DNA of 5,523 nucleotides from a virus (Duplodnaviria > Heunggongvirae > Uroviricota > Caudoviricetes). This document shows, piece by piece, positions 1-5,523 of this stretch. How positions within the stretch are numbered: the first letter of the stretch is position 1; each line of letters starts with the position of its first letter. The translations under genes and the position numbers were made by a program. The notes under the pieces were generated by a model. The model did not search any database. It had not been told where the DNA came from and saw nothing but the letters and a program-made list of their open reading frames with translations. The DNA is taken from the IMG/VR virus record IMGVR_UViG_2695420565_000012, one strand, 5' to 3'.

Positions 1-169
1 AACTGATAGTCTGCCAGACCCGCCATAACCAGCTGGGTCAGTATTAACTGGCAGCGTTCGCGTGAAAGGTAAGTATTCTGCGCAATCTCCCCGACTGTCG
101 CCGGTTCGGTGACGCTCAATTCATTAAACACCACTCTGGCGGTTTCGGTCATATCTTGCTGTTTTAGCA
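1..169 (-). CDS. 5' portion of a gene running off the left window edge; possible winged-helix/HTH DNA-binding protein
   Basis: ATG at 169..167 (plus-strand cat) preceded by GAAGGGAAAAAGAC. Frame is open to position 1, reading MLKQQDMTETARVVFNELSVTEPATVGEIAQNTYLSRERCQLILTQLVMAGLADYQ... The EIAQNTYLSRERCQLILTQLVMAGL stretch resembles a recognition helix/wing. Not in the ORF track because no stop lies inside the window. Confidence 0.4.
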
Positions 170-292
170 TGTCTTTTTCCCTTCTGGTTAACATGACATA
201 CCAATAACTCTTGTCTAAAAAGCCAGCAAGATAAAAAGTCAGTATTCACGACCACCAGCGTGTTTACTGTACTGCACCAAGTTTACAGGTAC

Positions 293-317
293 AAAAAACC
301 CGCTCAGTGGCGGGTTT
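293..317 (-). terminator. Rho-independent terminator-like hairpin downstream of the 205-aa gene
   Basis: Plus strand reads aaaaaa-CCCGC-tcagtg-GCGGG-ttt. Stem is 299-303 with 310-314 (5 bp GC-rich), loop 6 nt. On the minus-strand transcript the hairpin is followed by U6 (complement of the A-run at 293-298). The plus direction has only a short T-run, so it is weaker that way. Confidence 0.5.
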
Positions 318-446
318 AAGTTGTGTGGCGAAGTAACCACTCTTAACACACTAATAGCATTTTTGTTATAACACAAGTAGCTCATTCAGTATTTTTAGAA
401 TCTTGACTTTCTTAAGCACGGCGAACTCTGAATACCAAACATAAAA

Positions 447-1064
447 TCAATTATCTTCCAGGCCGGATGCTATCAACGAAAGCCTCTCAAAAAACGCTGT
501 AGCAGCCTTGTCCAAAGTTGAATAAGTACTGTATTCTCCGTGTTCGGGACCAACCACTACCCATGGTCGTCTTTTTGGGATTCGGGACTTCTCAGAAATC
601 ACTGTTCCAGATATACCAATATCAATTGTTACACCTGTTATTATTTTCTCTTCATCTCTTTCCCTGAACTCAATTGCCATAAATGCCGTTTTTTTTCGTT
701 TCCCGTTTTTAAAAAAATCAAATAAAGCAAAGCGATGCTCATTAAAATCAACACCCCATCGTCCTTCAGGATAAAGGGCATGAAAGTTGTCATTTACGCT
801 CTGCATCGTCTCATAAGCTTTAACTTTTAAATCTCCATAGTGCATAGATACCGCGCAGGAGTCACTGGGTAACTGTATTTTCCCAAGATTGAAAACCTTT
901 ACTGCTCCAGAACTATGGCATCTTGCCCGCAATTTATCCCCATTTATACTAATCGGAGAAATATTCCTTAATGTTCCGGGCTGGCTCCCTCCTAAGTAAA
1001 CGACTGTTAAAGATTGCTTATTTTCAATTGCATCAACTAATACATGCTCTACATTTTTATCCAT
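447..1064 (-). CDS. Hypothetical protein, 205 aa, AT-rich orphan/moron gene immediately downstream of Q; N-terminal region reminiscent of a WYL/Sm-like beta-barrel
   Basis: ORF-track entry 447..1091. I prefer the internal ATG at 1064..1062 because it has a strong SD (GGGAGG at 1076..1071, 5-nt spacer), whereas the ATG at 1091 has none. Stop TGA at 449..447. Hand count of 601-700 gives 33% G+C versus 50% for 4301-4400 in the Dam gene. N-terminal pattern LTVVYLGGSQPGTLRNISPISINGDKLRARCHSSGAVKVFNLGKI loosely fits the WYL-domain spacing, but this is unverified. Confidence 0.7.
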   Translation of the reverse strand: MDKNVEHVLVDAIENKQSLTVVYLGGSQPGTLRNISPISINGDKLRARCHSSGAVKVFNLGKIQLPSDSCAVSMHYGDLKVKAYETMQSVNDNFHALYPEGRWGVDFNEHRFALFDFFKNGKRKKTAFMAIEFRERDEEKIITGVTIDIGISGTVISEKSRIPKRRPWVVVGPEHGEYSTYSTLDKAATAFFERLSLIASGLEDN

Positions 1065-1139
1065 AATAACCTCCCAATGAACAGGTATCATCAGGAGGTT
1101 ATAATAAAATATGATTATTTACTTTGATTGAATTTATTA

Positions 1140-1511
1140 CTATATGTAACAATCAATTTCTAAAGATGCCCCCAACATTGCCAGACAACCGTCAATAAAC
1201 CCTTCAGCTTTCTGCAGTCTGATAACAACCTGATTAAGTGATATCCCCAGTTTTACCCCCAATACCCGTAATGTAACCCCATACACATAATACATTTCCA
1301 GTAATTCGTATTGATACGGTTCCTTTTTCTTAAGAACTGTCATCGCAGAGCTAATGATCAGGCCATCGTCATCGCTACATTGCGGGCGGGATTTTACTTT
1401 CGAAGGAATTAATCCCTTAAAACCTGCAGCAACAGATGACCATTCCACATCCTCGTGATTATTTGCCACCCATGCCCCCCAACGTTCAAGAACCATTTGA
1501 ATATCACGCAT
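1140..1511 (-). CDS. Late-gene antiterminator Q, phage 82 / QuuD-like family
   Basis: Translation [45 protein letters not shown]...[11 protein letters not shown] closely matches my recollection of E. coli DLP12 QuuD and phage 82 Q ([22 protein letters not shown]...SKVKSRPQC...RLQKAEG). Start taken at ATG 1511..1509 with SD GGAGAAA upstream, rather than the TTG at 1526 used by the ORF track. Stop TAG at 1142..1140. Confidence 0.85.
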   Translation of the reverse strand: [123 protein letters not shown]

Positions 1512-1528
1512 CAACTTTCTCCACAAAA

Positions 1529-2524
1529 TCAGGCCAGCACGCCTATTGCCAGCGCACGATCGATAAAACGAAATATCAGCTCCAGCTGGGAGCCATACTT
1601 CTCTTCAAATGCCACGGTATCCGCATGCAGCTCGTCGTGATGCTTTCTGCACAAAGGCAGCACGAAGAGGTCATGCGCTTTTGTACCCATTCCCCCCTGA
1701 CCGTGGCCTATCAGGTGGTGGGGATCATCAGCAGGCTTTCCACAACATGCACACGGCTGCGTCTTAACCCAGCGCGTGTACTTTTCGTTAACCCAGCGGC
1801 GACGTTTTGGGCGTAACATAAAAGACTCCGGCGACTCCGGATCCACTTTCAGCGCCAGCACCTTTTTCGCTTTATTCTGGATGATGCTGGTGGCCGGAAC
1901 CGAAGGCACAAGGTCACTCTCCCGGGTGACAGACGGCACAACAGGCTTCGGTAATCTCAGTGCCTTACGGGCTGCACTTTCCGGTAAGGCATCCGCCAGA
2001 TCATTACGAACCAGCCACCAGCACAGTTCCGGCATTGTCACAACGTGACTGTCATCAAAACCGAGATCCCGACGCACAACAGACAACACCCAGCGGGCAC
2101 AGTTATCCGTTGCCATTGATTCCAGCCGTTCCGTGAACTGATCGCGCAGCTGGTTATCGCAGTGCCAGCACAGACGGATTGCGCCCGGCGCGTGTCGCAT
2201 TGTGGTCATGTTCTCGCTGTGCCAGTCGGAATGAGGCCACTGGCAACCTTTTTCACGAAGTAACCAGCTTTCAAGACATTCCACGCCACCAGCACGACGG
2301 ATCACTGCCTCATTGCGGAACACGGCCCGAACGGCAGGATCATCCGCCAGCGGTTGTGATGCTGCCGGAACGGCACCACTGGCAAAAGATGAATAACGTT
2401 CCGGCTCAGGCTCCAGCAGGACACGCCCCTGCATAAACAGGGGCATCAGCTCTGAACCGGGTCTGAACAATACGATCCCCATACGCGGGGCAATTTCAGG
2501 GGTCAGTAGTGCTCTCACGGTCAC
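1529..2524 (-). CDS. Prophage protein, DUF968/YdfU-like, with a C-terminal Cys/His motif resembling an HNH-type zinc-binding nuclease fold
   Basis: 331-aa ORF. GTG start at 2524 with GAGG upstream, overlapping the stop of the upstream antirepressor gene (TGAGGTGACCGTG). C-terminus CACCGKPADDPHHLIGHGQGGMGTKAHDLFVLPLCRKHHDELH carries a CxxC...HH...H arrangement. Its position directly upstream of Q matches ydfU-quuQ in the E. coli Qin prophage (from memory). Confidence 0.7.
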   Translation of the reverse strand: MTVRALLTPEIAPRMGIVLFRPGSELMPLFMQGRVLLEPEPERYSSFASGAVPAASQPLADDPAVRAVFRNEAVIRRAGGVECLESWLLREKGCQWPHSDWHSENMTTMRHAPGAIRLCWHCDNQLRDQFTERLESMATDNCARWVLSVVRRDLGFDDSHVVTMPELCWWLVRNDLADALPESAARKALRLPKPVVPSVTRESDLVPSVPATSIIQNKAKKVLALKVDPESPESFMLRPKRRRWVNEKYTRWVKTQPCACCGKPADDPHHLIGHGQGGMGTKAHDLFVLPLCRKHHDELHADTVAFEEKYGSQLELIFRFIDRALAIGVLA

Positions 2525-2525
2525 C

Positions 2526-3341
2526 TCAATGAACGGTATCGAGCAGCTTTAACAGCTCAGGGAATCGGGATTCGAAGAAATGCGGCTGCGTCTCGCGCGG
2601 ATTTGCGGGACTGGTGATGTTCTTGCCGAACATGCAACCTTTCGCTGTCAGCGACCAGAATTTTTTGATGTTGTTAATCGCGGTACGGCTGTATCGTTCG
2701 CGTTGTTCAACGATCCCCAGCTTCGCCATCTGGTGATATGCCTGATTAGCCGTCAGGCGGATACCATACTGCTTCAGCAGTGCACTCAGCGACAGCGTAG
2801 GGCGGCTTGAACCATCTGGCGCATCAGCAGGTGCATCAATGGCATAGATCGGCATAAGTTCAGGAAGACCAGCTACCTTTGATAATTTCTGGTATGCACC
2901 AAGTTTCGAGGAGTTTGACAGATTTAGAGTCTTTGCTGCTGATTCAAGCAGAATGACCCCGGATTTAATTTTGTCGGATGTGGTTTCTTCTGGTGATGAA
3001 TTATGAAGCGCATCAAAAGTACGTATCACTTTTAAGCTGAATGCCGGGCTGATCCACATTGCATATGCATAGACCAGCTCTTTACAGACATACGTCCCAC
3101 CATTGCGCCCCTGAATGGTGATGACAGGAATACTACGGGAATCTCCCGTAGTTTCTTCTTCCAATAATTCCACAAGAGCCTTCGTTTCAGGACGACGCAT
3201 AAACTCGTGAACTTCCAGCGAACGGGAGGAGCGATTCTCACCAGCGGCAAGAAGAGCAGCTTTCTGAAGGTCGTTAAGACAGTAGTTAGATTCGAAGTAC
3301 TGGCGCACAGAAACGCCATCAATTACAAGCAACTGATTCAT
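2526..3341 (-). CDS. Antirepressor-like protein with N-terminal KilA-N domain and ANT-like C-terminal region
   Basis: ORF-track entry 2526..3353 (GTG start). I prefer ATG 3341..3339 (MNQLLVIDGV...) with SD GGAGAA 5 nt upstream. N-terminal VRQYFESNYCLNDLQKAA...GRNGGTYVCKELVYAYAMWISPAFSLKVI fits the KilA-N pattern (G-T-W/Y-V...W-I/L-S-P-x-F). The C-terminal part resembles phage antirepressor C-terminal domains. Confidence 0.8.
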   Translation of the reverse strand: MNQLLVIDGVSVRQYFESNYCLNDLQKAALLAAGENRSSRSLEVHEFMRRPETKALVELLEEETTGDSRSIPVITIQGRNGGTYVCKELVYAYAMWISPAFSLKVIRTFDALHNSSPEETTSDKIKSGVILLESAAKTLNLSNSSKLGAYQKLSKVAGLPELMPIYAIDAPADAPDGSSRPTLSLSALLKQYGIRLTANQAYHQMAKLGIVEQRERYSRTAINNIKKFWSLTAKGCMFGKNITSPANPRETQPHFFESRFPELLKLLDTVH

Positions 3342-3438
3342 TGGTTTCTCCACAAATTTTTATCCACGAGCGGGACTGCACTCCCTTTTCGTTGATGCAG
3401 GATGAACTTACTGCGATTTTTAATAGTTATCAAGGATA

Positions 3439-3458
3439 CACTGTTCATAAATACAGTA
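3439..3458. promoter_or_regulatory. LexA (SOS) box candidate in the rusA-ant intergenic region
   Basis: Plus strand cactgttcataaatacagta has a perfect CTGT-N8-ACAG core with an AT-rich spacer and matches 16 of 20 positions of the consensus TACTGTATATATATACAGTA (counted by hand). It lies about 98 nt upstream of the antirepressor ATG at 3341. Confidence 0.5.
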
Positions 3459-3469
3459 TCTTTAACGAG

Positions 3470-3498
3470 GTAATACCCAAATTTAGGGTGTTGCTCAA
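3470..3498 (-). promoter_or_regulatory. Candidate sigma70 promoter for the antirepressor operon (-35 TTGAGC, 17-nt spacer, -10 TATTAC)
   Basis: Minus strand reads TTGAGC (3498..3493), a 17-nt spacer, then TATTAC (3475..3470). That would put the LexA box at about +5 to +24. An alternative pair, TTGATA-17 nt-TAAGTT, lies just downstream of the box. Prediction by eye only. Confidence 0.25.
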
Positions 3499-3503
3499 TT
3501 CCG

Positions 3504-3899
3504 TTACCGAGTTGCTAATTTGCAACTCGCTTTTTCGTACTTACTGATAGTGATCTCGACCTTCCCCTCCGGGATAACCGGTCCCCACTCCACCAGCATT
3601 CTTTTCACCTGTCTGTCGTCTTCCCACACACCCGCGTGGGTCAGGGCGTCAAACAGCGCCTTGTTATAGTTGTCCAGATCGCGGATCCGGTTATCCGGAG
3701 GAAACAACACGATCTCCACTGAAGCAGGTGCCGACGTTGGTTTCGGCAGACGACGTAACTGCTCAACTATTGCTGCACACGCCGCGCTCTGGAATTTTCG
3801 CCCCGCCGCGCTTATCAGGCTCTTACCAGCAAACGCCCCTTTGTTGGGGTGTCGCCAGTACGTGTTCACGCTGGGCGGAAAAGGCAGTATTAGCTTCAT
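3504..3899 (-). CDS. rusA: Crossover junction endodeoxyribonuclease RusA (Holliday junction resolvase)
   Basis: 131-aa ORF. LPFPPSVNTYWRH and RDLDNYNKALFDALTHAGVWEDDRQV match the RusA N-terminal and catalytic Asp-rich motifs (compare E. coli RusA LPWPPSNNRYYRH...[27 protein letters not shown]). ATG 3899..3897 overlaps the upstream stop as ATGA. Confidence 0.9.
   Translation of the reverse strand: MKLILPFPPSVNTYWRHPNKGAFAGKSLISAAGRKFQSAACAAIVEQLRRLPKPTSAPASVEIVLFPPDNRIRDLDNYNKALFDALTHAGVWEDDRQVKRMLVEWGPVIPEGKVEITISKYEKASCKLATR
3508..3535 (+). terminator. Plus-strand terminator-like hairpin inside the 3' end of rusA
   Basis: cgagttgc (3508-3515), loop taattt, gcaactcg (3522-3529) form an 8-bp stem, followed by cTTTTTcg on the plus strand. 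The minus-strand reading has no U-run. No convincing plus-strand gene lies upstream of it. Confidence 0.3.
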
Positions 3900-4222
3900 A
3901 CTTTCAGGCCCCTCTCATGTAACCAGTGGGCTGCACGCAGCCTGGCGTTTGCCTCACCGGCAAGCAGGGCGCGGATAATCCCGACCGCCTCGCTGTCGTC
4001 GTCCTTCACCGCGGTATGAAGAGTGATACCCCGGGCCACGCCACGCTTTATCGTGATGACACCTTTTTTCTCCAGTGCGCGAAGATGCTCCACCGCTGCA
4101 TTCACCGAACGGTATCCCAGCATGGTTGCCACCTCCTGATTGGTTGGCGGGAAGCCACGTTCTTTCTGATAAGAAATCAGCATATCCAGCACCTGCTGCT
4201 GGCATTGAGTTAATGTCGTCAT
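3896..4222 (-). CDS. LexA-family DNA-binding protein consisting of the LexA N-terminal winged-helix domain only (no S24 peptidase/autocleavage domain)
   Basis: 108 aa. LTQCQQQVLDMLISYQKERGFPPTNQEVATMLGYRSVNAAVEHLRALEKKGVITIKRGVARGITL aligns along its length with the E. coli LexA N-terminus ([65 protein letters not shown]). It is too short to contain the Ala-Gly cleavage site and Ser/Lys dyad domain. SD GGGAG upstream; ATG 4222..4220 overlaps the Dam stop (ATGA). Confidence 0.85.
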   Translation of the reverse strand: MTTLTQCQQQVLDMLISYQKERGFPPTNQEVATMLGYRSVNAAVEHLRALEKKGVITIKRGVARGITLHTAVKDDDSEAVGIIRALLAGEANARLRAAHWLHERGLKV

Positions 4223-4872
4223 GCCGCCATCTCCCTGACCAGTTTTTCCGCCTGCTGGCGAACCTGCGCCAGAAACGCCTCACCACATGCCTCAAGTTCA
4301 TCGCGCCCGATGTAGCTGATTGCCGCTCCCTTCCAGGTCTTGTCGAAAACAGCAATAGCACCAGCGAAGAAAGCACCTGTTGGCACCTGCTTTTCGTCTT
4401 TCGGGATAAACCAGGCTGGCAGTTCAAAACCAATACGCCCGCGAATAAAAGCAATATGATCTGCATCTTCCGGCCACCACACTTCGCTGGTGGCCGCTTT
4501 GATCAGGAAAACATAGCGCCCGCCCTTATCACGCATGGCACTGGCATGTTTCATGATGTAACGCATGCCGGTGATGTATTGCCCCTCATGCTGACTGGCG
4601 CGGCTGTATGGGGGATTACCAAAGGCAGCACCTTTAAGCTCCGCAAGACGTTCTGACCAGTCATGCGCCAGCGCGTTGTCTTCCGCCGTGTAATACGCGG
4701 CACATTTGGCGTTATCACCGTCAGTGAACAGATCCAGAACAAACGGACCAAACAAGGTGTTAATTCCCCAGAAAATGTTGTCCGGCGTGCGCCACTGATC
4801 GCCCACTTCCTTCAGTTCATGGGCTGGTTTGTTCCGCAGTTCTACCAGCGCCTGGCAATATTTATTACTCAT
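4219..4872 (-). CDS. Phage Dam-type DNA N6-adenine methyltransferase
   Basis: Contains FGNPPYSR, the (D/N)PPY catalytic motif of N6-adenine methyltransferases; overall resembles the phage N-6-adenine-methyltransferase family. Start taken at ATG 4872..4870 (MSNKYCQALVELRN...) rather than the GTG at 4917 from the ORF track, because the ATG overlaps the stop of the upstream micro-ORF (TAATG) and follows a GGGGG run. Stop TGA at 4221..4219. Confidence 0.85.
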   Translation of the reverse strand: MSNKYCQALVELRNKPAHELKEVGDQWRTPDNIFWGINTLFGPFVLDLFTDGDNAKCAAYYTAEDNALAHDWSERLAELKGAAFGNPPYSRASQHEGQYITGMRYIMKHASAMRDKGGRYVFLIKAATSEVWWPEDADHIAFIRGRIGFELPAWFIPKDEKQVPTGAFFAGAIAVFDKTWKGAAISYIGRDELEACGEAFLAQVRQQAEKLVREMAA

Positions 4873-4964
4873 TAAGCCCCCACGTAAAAAGCATCCGCAA
4901 TGTCTCCGGAAGTACACCCCGGATGGGCTTCAATGAATTTCTGAACTTCATTCAAAAGACTCAT
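4872..4964 (-). CDS. Possible 30-aa micro-ORF translationally coupled between the upstream ORF and Dam
   Basis: ATG 4964..4962 lies 2 nt after the upstream TGA stop (TGATCATGA). It reads MSLLNEVQKFIEAHPGCTSGDIADAFYVGA, and its TAA stop overlaps the Dam ATG (TAATG). Not in the ORF track (too short). No recognisable family. Confidence 0.3.
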   Translation of the reverse strand: MSLLNEVQKFIEAHPGCTSGDIADAFYVGA

Positions 4965-4966
4965 GA

Positions 4967-5467
4967 TCACCCCCTGAATCCTTCCGGGATCTGGCTGTAG
5001 TCCACGTTGTCGTAACTGGCTTTGAAGTACGGGTCCTCGCGTCTGGCTGCAGATACCGCAGGAACTTCCCAGGATTCTTCGAAATGACGATCCGGACCAA
5101 AGAACGTCGACGCCTGCTTCACGAACTGGGTACCGGTATTTCCAGAGACACGCACCCAGGCGGCATAGCGTTTCACACCGTCGAGCATGGTTTCGGGTGT
5201 CACACCTTCCCTGATTCGGGCTTTCCAGGCTTTAAAAGCGGCGGATTTTGAATTACCACCAGCACGTTTGGGATATTCCTGCCAGGCCTGTTCAAATTCC
5301 GGTGAATATTCCTGTCTGGCAGAACGCGCTGGTGCAGACGCGTCAGCGGATGCGCCAATAGTGTTTTTAGTCTCCGTTGTAATCTCTGTAGTAATCTCTG
5401 TAGTAATCTCTGTATTTGAGGTGTACTGACAATAGCGGACACTACCATTTGTTCTTTTTTTAAGCAG
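4967..5467 (-). CDS. Phage replication-associated protein (conserved phage C-terminal domain, Phg_2220_C-like motif) with N-terminal (TEIT)n repeats; start codon undetermined, possibly frameshifted
   Basis: The frame is open from the stop TAG (5470..5468) to TGA (4969..4967). It reads ...NTEITTEITTEITTETKNTIGASADASAPARSARQEYSPEFEQAWQEYPKRAGGNSKSAAFKAWKARIREGVTPETMLDGVKRYAAWVRVSGNTGTQFVKQASTFFGPDRHFEESWEV... The F-x-x-(F/A)-W-x-x-Y-P-K-R...A-x-K-A-W...F-x-x-x-x-W pattern matches the conserved C-terminal domain of phage replication proteins as I recall it. No ATG/GTG/TTG occurs in this frame upstream of the GTG at 5203, which is the ORF-track start. Confidence 0.5.
   Translation of the reverse strand: MLKKRTNGSVRYCQYTSNTEITTEITTEITTETKNTIGASADASAPARSARQEYSPEFEQAWQEYPKRAGGNSKSAAFKAWKARIREGVTPETMLDGVKRYAAWVRVSGNTGTQFVKQASTFFGPDRHFEESWEVPAVSAARREDPYFKASYDNVDYSQIPEGFRG
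5379..5414. repeat. Perfect 12-bp tandem repeat x3 (gtaatctctgta), preceded by a degenerate copy from about 5371
   Basis: Read directly: 5379-5390, 5391-5402 and 5403-5414 are identical, and 5371-5378 (tctccgtt) is a partial related unit. In the minus-strand frame continuous with the downstream conserved domain it encodes TEIT-TEIT-TEIT. Confidence 0.9.
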
Positions 5468-5523
5468 CTATCTGATGATATTTTTCCCTGAAGGCTGCCG
5501 GGGAGATATTCCCCAGACGAGAG
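5460..5523 (-). CDS. Possible 3' end of an upstream gene entering from the right window edge
   Basis: One minus-strand frame is open from the edge and reads ...SRLGNISPAAFREKYHQIAA before TAA at 5462..5460. A second frame is also open from the edge, so the assignment is uncertain; only about 20 codons are visible. Confidence 0.25.
   Translation of the reverse strand, partial: SRLGNISPAAFREKYHQIAA

Follow-up and report, generated by a model that had tools for sequence, protein, structure and literature searches.

Reading frames that meet near the edge of the window

The DNA analysed here, hereafter called the window, is a stretch of 5,523 nucleotides from the virus record IMGVR_UViG_2695420565_000012. 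Near position 5523, an open reading frame on its minus strand carries TEIT repeats and a conserved C-terminal motif and has no canonical start where one would be expected, which raises the question of whether the frame is reached by recoding, is initiated at an unusual codon, or is only part of a gene.

The minus strand of 4600..5523 was read together with an ORF listing and a frame walk by script, and everything that a previous reading of the letters alone (the sequence-only reading) had stated about the sequence itself proved correct. The TEIT frame, encoding NTEITTEITTEITTETKN..., opens after TAG 5470..5468, contains no ATG, GTG or TTG before GTG 5203 (the next ATG is at 5188), and terminates at TGA 4969..4967 according to the frame walk. 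ATG 5448..5446 is the start of an arginine-rich ORF of 82 aa in another frame (5200..5448, minus strand). A run of seven A (A7) lies at 5461..5455 on the minus strand, and the third frame has its stop at TAA 5462..5460. From this arrangement, three causes had been proposed: an indel in the A-run that produced a pseudogene or split gene, programmed frameshifting, or initiation at a rare codon. That the ORF is incomplete stood; none of the three causes did, as described below.

The right end of IS600

The right-hand 107 bp of an IS600 element (IS3 family) were found at 5417..5523 on the minus strand, and the window ends inside the element. Window 5523..5417 matched positions 1158-1264 of a complete 1264-bp IS600 copy on plasmid p720632_94 (L003 444..1707) with 106/107 identity. 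This complete copy starts TGAGGTAGCC... and finishes ...GTACACCTCA, has TG...CA ends, and is flanked in L003 by a direct repeat of 3 bp (AAT/AAT). When 5405..5523 was searched by megablast, about 2,885 of the 5,426 complete E. coli genomes gave matches; a single genome had as many as 43 matching places, and 876 places in this genome set were on plasmids. At 95-99% identity, at least 80% of the query was covered in 3,423 E. coli records and in 754 records of E. coli and Shigella plasmids, and the matching records were annotated as 'IS3-like element IS600 family transposase'.

The frame closing at TAA 5462..5460 had been suspected to be the tail of an upstream gene, and this is what it is, the gene being the IS600 transposase gene orfB. 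The 3ʹ end of orfB occupies 5460..5522 (minus strand) and reads ...SRLGNISPAAFREKYHQIAA before the stop; the tail is also given as ...NISPAAFREKYHQIAA. Upon translation, the last 20 orfB codons in the window matched without a difference those that close the 305-codon orfB frame in the complete copy, and the annotated transposase CDS stops at the equivalent position in L003 and in four further reference loci (L005-L008). Beyond the stop, the right terminal inverted repeat covers 5417..5444 (minus strand); it is imperfect, about 27 bp long, and finishes 5ʹ-...CA-3ʹ at 5417, where the window reads ...ACACCTCA. The pattern common to the left and right repeats (IRL and IRR) is TGAGGT...CTG...CGGACACT.C, a pairing seen only on the complete reference copy, with the window holding the right repeat. 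The IRR of the window carries one substitution, T at 5429.

We aligned the IS600 end of the window with those of seven other copies, from E. coli O121, O26, 2013C-4830 and p720632_94 and from S. boydii, S. flexneri and S. sonnei. All eight ends agree up to ...CACCTCA, after which each enters different flanking DNA, the behaviour of a mobile element. Because the aligned copies diverge directly after ...CACCTCA, position 5417 is placed as the outer end of IS600. Judged by this alignment, the meeting of frames at 5440-5470 is no chance coincidence, since at the outer end of an IS600 copy three unrelated frames come together. One is that of the transposase, the second is non-coding and belongs to the IS end, and the third is that of the orphaned C-terminal half of the interrupted gene, read back into IS sequence.

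The 82-aa ORF is spurious, because its start lies in the IS600 terminal repeat and its remainder runs out of frame through the replication gene described below. In IS600 coordinates ATG 5448 is at position 1233, where the IS end is non-coding, and beyond the IS end the ORF follows the -1 frame of the replication gene, whose true frame is set by homology.

Two single-base features of this IS600 end were also observed. The A at 5469 (GATAGC), which creates the TAG taken by the sequence-only reading as the opening of the frame, is common to the window and the p720632_94 copy, the six other copies having G (GATGGC). In the terminal repeat, none of the other aligned copies, eight with the window, has the T that the window carries at 5429. 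Both A 5469 and T 5429 could be used as markers for tracing the source lineage.

The replication-initiator fragment downstream of the IS end

In megablast searches against phages and E. coli genomes, everything from 5418 downstream was identified as the replication gene of a lambdoid prophage. From 5418 downstream, the window is 99.06% identical over 532 nt to 2501..3032 of L001, a locus of E. coli ExPEC XM (NZ_CP025328.1) in which the intact relative, a 331-aa 'replication protein' (WP_101356868.1), is encoded at 1957..2952. The intact protein reads ...TPNVDTNTEITTEITTEITTETKNTIGASADAS..., and its TEIT frame runs upstream to an ATG preceded by a GGAAGGAGG ribosome-binding site. The TEIT frame is the true frame, because the intact WP_101356868.1 protein reads through it. 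Orthologues had been put forward as the way to decide which frame is contiguous, and in the intact relatives the TEIT frame continues 182 codons upstream to an ATG. That continuation is not what the window carries: no part of the intact gene upstream of GATACAAAT resembles the window, and nucleotide comparison found the sequence of the intact relatives upstream of 5418 to be unrelated to it. At least 35 E. coli genomes were 100% identical over 5418..5200 by megablast, and none of them continued into the window's 5419..5523.

The window therefore retains, as judged from these homologies, a 3ʹ fragment of the replication-initiator gene at 4967..5416 (minus strand), consisting of codons 183-331 and the stop, without the start and the N-terminal domain. 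Residues 10-148 of the fragment matched phrog_270 'replication initiation protein' (E=1.6e-51) and phrog_26426 (E=7.4e-58), and in both cases the match was confined to the C-terminal part of the profile. Neither Pfam nor NCBIfam assigned a significant family to the replication protein or its fragment, which was named by PHROGs alone. The C-terminal conserved domain of the phrog_270 (lambda O-like/DnaD-like) initiator is present. The N-terminal (winged-helix/origin-binding) domain and an in-frame start are absent, as the fragment begins at codon 183 of 331 and its first canonical start is GTG 5203. On the strength of these comparisons, the 'conserved-domain ORF without start' consists of the last 149 codons of a gene that IS600 disrupts.

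The TEIT repeats correspond to a 12-bp tandem repeat, ACAGAGATTACT, present in 3.7 copies at 5371..5414 (minus strand; Tandem Repeats Finder score 74) and encoding the TEIT linker; the repeat is identical in the intact relative L001. The repeats separate the N-terminal domain of the replication initiator from its C-terminal domain, and IS600 is located 3 bp from the first repeat unit. In phage cdtI, the homologous gene carries tandem repeats of 21/66 bp in this place (L009 676..846), unrelated to those of the window. In lambda, the origin iterons lie at the corresponding place, inside gene O. By analogy, the 12-bp TEIT-coding repeats may be origin iterons rather than a mere peptide linker.

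The A7 run and the proposed recoding

The A7 run (5455..5461, minus strand) overlaps the orfB stop (TAA AAA AAG) and lies in the untranslated IS end. An error or mutation in the length of this run was one of the proposed explanations, by which one continuous gene would have been split into two frames. Homopolymer runs are error-prone, and two frames do switch near A7. Yet the run is identical in all eight aligned IS600 ends, that is, its length is the same in the seven other copies from E. coli, S. boydii, S. flexneri and S. sonnei. Moreover, the run is not the junction that it had been taken for: both of its flanks belong to IS600, the switch in homology is at 5417 and not at 5455-5461, and between the run and the point where resemblance to the replication gene ends there are 38 to 40 nt, the run being upstream. 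An altered A-run would join the replication-gene frame merely to non-coding IS sequence or to the transposase, and coding continuity across A7 was not found, the intact homologues sharing nothing with the window upstream of 5418. We give this explanation practically no credence.

The other proposal was that ribosomes reach the TEIT frame by programmed -1 frameshifting on A-AAA-AAA, or enter it by initiation at CTG 5467 or ATT, which would yield a product with the peptide LLKKRTNGSVRYCQYTSNTEITT... or a transposase-TEIT fusion. The heptamer A AAA AAG is one of the classic slippery sequences, and the sequence-only reading had rightly spotted a motif capable of slippage. IS600 contains TTAAAAAAAG twice, at positions 316-322 and 1220-1226, the second being the A7 site of the window. 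The first, about 900 bp upstream (L003 759..765), lies in the orfA/orfB overlap; reference IS600 copies carry a 'programmed frameshift' annotation, and the annotated -1 frameshift of the transposase is presumably located at this first TTAAAAAAAG.

The copy in the window, however, is not translated through. The heptamer does not lie in the zero frame of a translated ORF, as A7 follows and overlaps the orfB stop. The frame that would act as donor is non-coding in IS600; past the window edge it stays open for only 9 more codons, still inside the element, and it has no start before the run, the first being ATG 5448. The only frame translated here is orfB, which ends at the TAA overlapping the run and whose offset from the TEIT frame is +1/-2 and not -1. 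From TAG 5470 to 5416, the 18 codons come from the IS terminal repeat and do not resemble replication proteins, and protein alignment of LLKKRTNGSVRYCQYTS found no similarity to replication proteins. As for a rare start, CTG 5467 falls within IS600. The TAG/CTG context varies among IS600 copies, and a scan of 4850..5523 gave no promoter-like site. Relatives did not preserve the site and its pair of frames either, the junction occurring in 0 records of the 5,426 E. coli genomes, the GTDB representatives, the metagenome contigs and IMG/VR. Recoding or rare-codon initiation at this site is thus vanishingly improbable. A +1 frameshift or readthrough from orfB was considered as well and was rejected along with the A-run indel, the -1 frameshift and CTG/ATT initiation. 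On the aligned sequences, the A7 of the window is not a recoding site; it is a fixed part of the untranslated right end of IS600.

The junction and the target site

Taken at the level of sequence, it is almost certain that a copy of IS600 splits the replication-initiator gene of the prophage, the window containing only the right junction between IS and target. IS600 lies in the region coding for the inter-domain linker, between or next to codons 182 and 183 and in the same orientation as the gene, at ...ACA AAT|ACA..., three bases before the first TEIT repeat. The element supplies the transposase stop TAA 5462, A7 and the terminal repeat to 5417, and the gene supplies the sequence from 5416 down to TGA 4967.

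IS600, of the IS3 family, moves by copy-out/paste-in transposition and generates a 3-bp target duplication. Next to the IS end, the window has a target-derived AAT triplet (5414..5416, minus strand), presumed to be the 3-bp target-site duplication, of which one side is visible. The intact gene around the site reads GAT ACA AAT ACA GAG (L001). For IS600, a target sequence of 3 nt has been described (PMC9397093). Five bases (CAAAT) are common to the IS end plus target and to the intact gene, so that the breakpoint is fixed only to within the known terminus of the IS. The sequence comparisons show the identity of both sides as well as the breakpoint.

With a simple insertion, which we infer, the N-terminal half of the gene would follow 1.26 kb further on, beyond the window edge. 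The full arrangement would then be ...GTTGATACAAAT followed by the IS600 left end, TGAGGTAGCCTGAG, 1264 bp from 5417, and this left end would be preceded by ...CCGAATGTTGATACAAAT, the 5ʹ half of the gene with the duplicated AAT last. A different history would be an IS600-mediated rearrangement. Adjacent deletion or IS-IS recombination would then have removed or relocated the 5ʹ half of the gene together with the prophage DNA upstream of it, so that the far side of the IS would be unrelated DNA. The presence of IS600 at up to 43 places in some genomes favours IS-IS recombination, and a single junction with one flank of the target triplet is what the window makes visible. No positive evidence for a rearrangement was found, however, and the AAT beside the IS end fits a simple insertion that duplicated 3 bp in ...ACA AAT ACA.... 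We consider a rearrangement unlikely, though it is the alternative to be taken most seriously.

The exact junction between IS and target (the 27-mer GTACACCTCAAATACAGAGATTACTAC) had zero matches in GTDB species-representative genomes, JGI metagenome contigs and IMG/VR, and in a megablast search of 5200-5523 against the 5,426 complete E. coli genomes, no record covered 80% or more. Because it was absent from all collections searched, the IS600/replication-gene junction is probably strain- or lineage-specific.

The window edge at 5523 lies 107 bp inside the multicopy IS element, a typical signature of a short-read contig break at a repeat, and because the window ends there, its source is probably a draft assembly. 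Such an edge, together with a junction seen in no other collection, would also suit an assembly chimera in which an IS600 end was wrongly joined to the prophage gene. Against such a misjoin, the sequence common to the IS end and the target is just CAAAT, and 5 bases are far too few to mislead a k-mer assembly. The break also coincides with the canonical IS600 terminus, which is expected from real transposition but not from a random misjoin. A chimera is accordingly judged extremely unlikely, and an IS600 copy within the replication gene remains the preferred reading.

Consequences for the prophage

By inference, the replication gene is inactivated, leaving a 149-codon 3ʹ fragment without its own start, and the prophage would probably be replication-defective (cryptic) in the source strain unless the IS excises. 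A promoter and terminator consensus scan of 4850-5523 on both strands found nothing. With no promoter-like site, there is no support for an outward hybrid promoter that would drive the fragment; read-out transcription is conceivable, because no terminator-like site was found in 4850..5523. It is very unlikely, although not quite so remote as the chimera, that the C-terminal domain is made from GTG 5203 or ATG 5188 via transcription out of IS600 and then acts as a free helicase-interacting fragment hindering related superinfecting phages and that, separately, the TEIT-coding repeats are origin iterons, in which case IS600 would sit at the origin of the prophage.

For annotation, the locus should be described as an IS600 right end and a disrupted replication-gene fragment (pseudogene), not as recoding or a non-canonical start. 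Disruption of a gene by IS600 insertion is an already known, ordinary event, and no new biology is involved.

Prophage context of the window

The rest of the window is a typical early-right region of a lambdoid prophage on the minus strand. Its genes, all on the minus strand, encode a short PerC-like ORF, a Dam-type methyltransferase, a protein with a LexA DNA-binding domain, RusA, a KilA-N protein, a DUF968/HNH protein, the antiterminator Q and a 214-aa protein. Window 5361..1 is 97.6-97.8% identical to prophages of E. coli strains such as S88.

The gene for the PerC-family regulator is reduced to a 32-aa ORF (window 4872..4970, minus strand, versus L001 2949..3443). Compared with L001, an in-frame segment of 396 bp (132 codons, L001 3033..3428) with TT microhomology at its ends is missing, which removes the Pfam PerC domain. 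Span differences indicate the same 396-bp absence relative to the listed best whole-window E. coli matches. In phage cdtI, too, the replication gene and dam are separated by only about 50 bp, and the shortened PerC gene may reflect natural mosaicism and not a recent deletion.

The 214-aa ORF (window 447..1091, minus strand) lies downstream of the Q antiterminator and had no Pfam match at E<=0.001; in some E. coli genomes, its relatives bear the annotation 'WYL domain-containing protein'. Accessory or defence cargo is often found at this position in lambdoid phages.

Comparison with known systems

Among lambdoid initiators (phrog_270; the 'DNA replication protein O' and 'DnaD domain' proteins of phages cdtI, SfV, mEp460 and Stx), the C-terminal 149 residues of the fragment are 90-99% identical, and the downstream gene order (dam, LexA-like, RusA, KilA-N) is the same as in the window. 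In contrast to these initiators, the copy in the window is without the N-terminal 182 residues and the start codon, and it is therefore a gene fragment and not a functional member of the family.

The -1 frameshift site of IS3-family elements (A AAA AAG in the orfA/orfB overlap) has the same TTAAAAAAAG motif as the A7 of the window. The motif in the window differs in that it comes after the orfB stop, with no translated zero frame through it and no -1 coding continuation within the IS.

With IS600 itself, the window shares the C-terminus and stop of orfB, A7, the CA-ending repeat and an A/T-rich triplet beside the end. It differs in having the right end alone and in an insertion site, the prophage replication gene, that was unseen in the other collections searched. 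IS600 is known to insert into and inactivate genes, for example lacZ of STEC O121:H19, where the insertion is reversible and IEE-promoted excision of IS600 restores lacZ (PMC9397093). As in that strain, where the target sequence is 3 nt (PMC9397093), IS600 in the window interrupts a coding sequence, whereas the gene hit here is a replication initiator.
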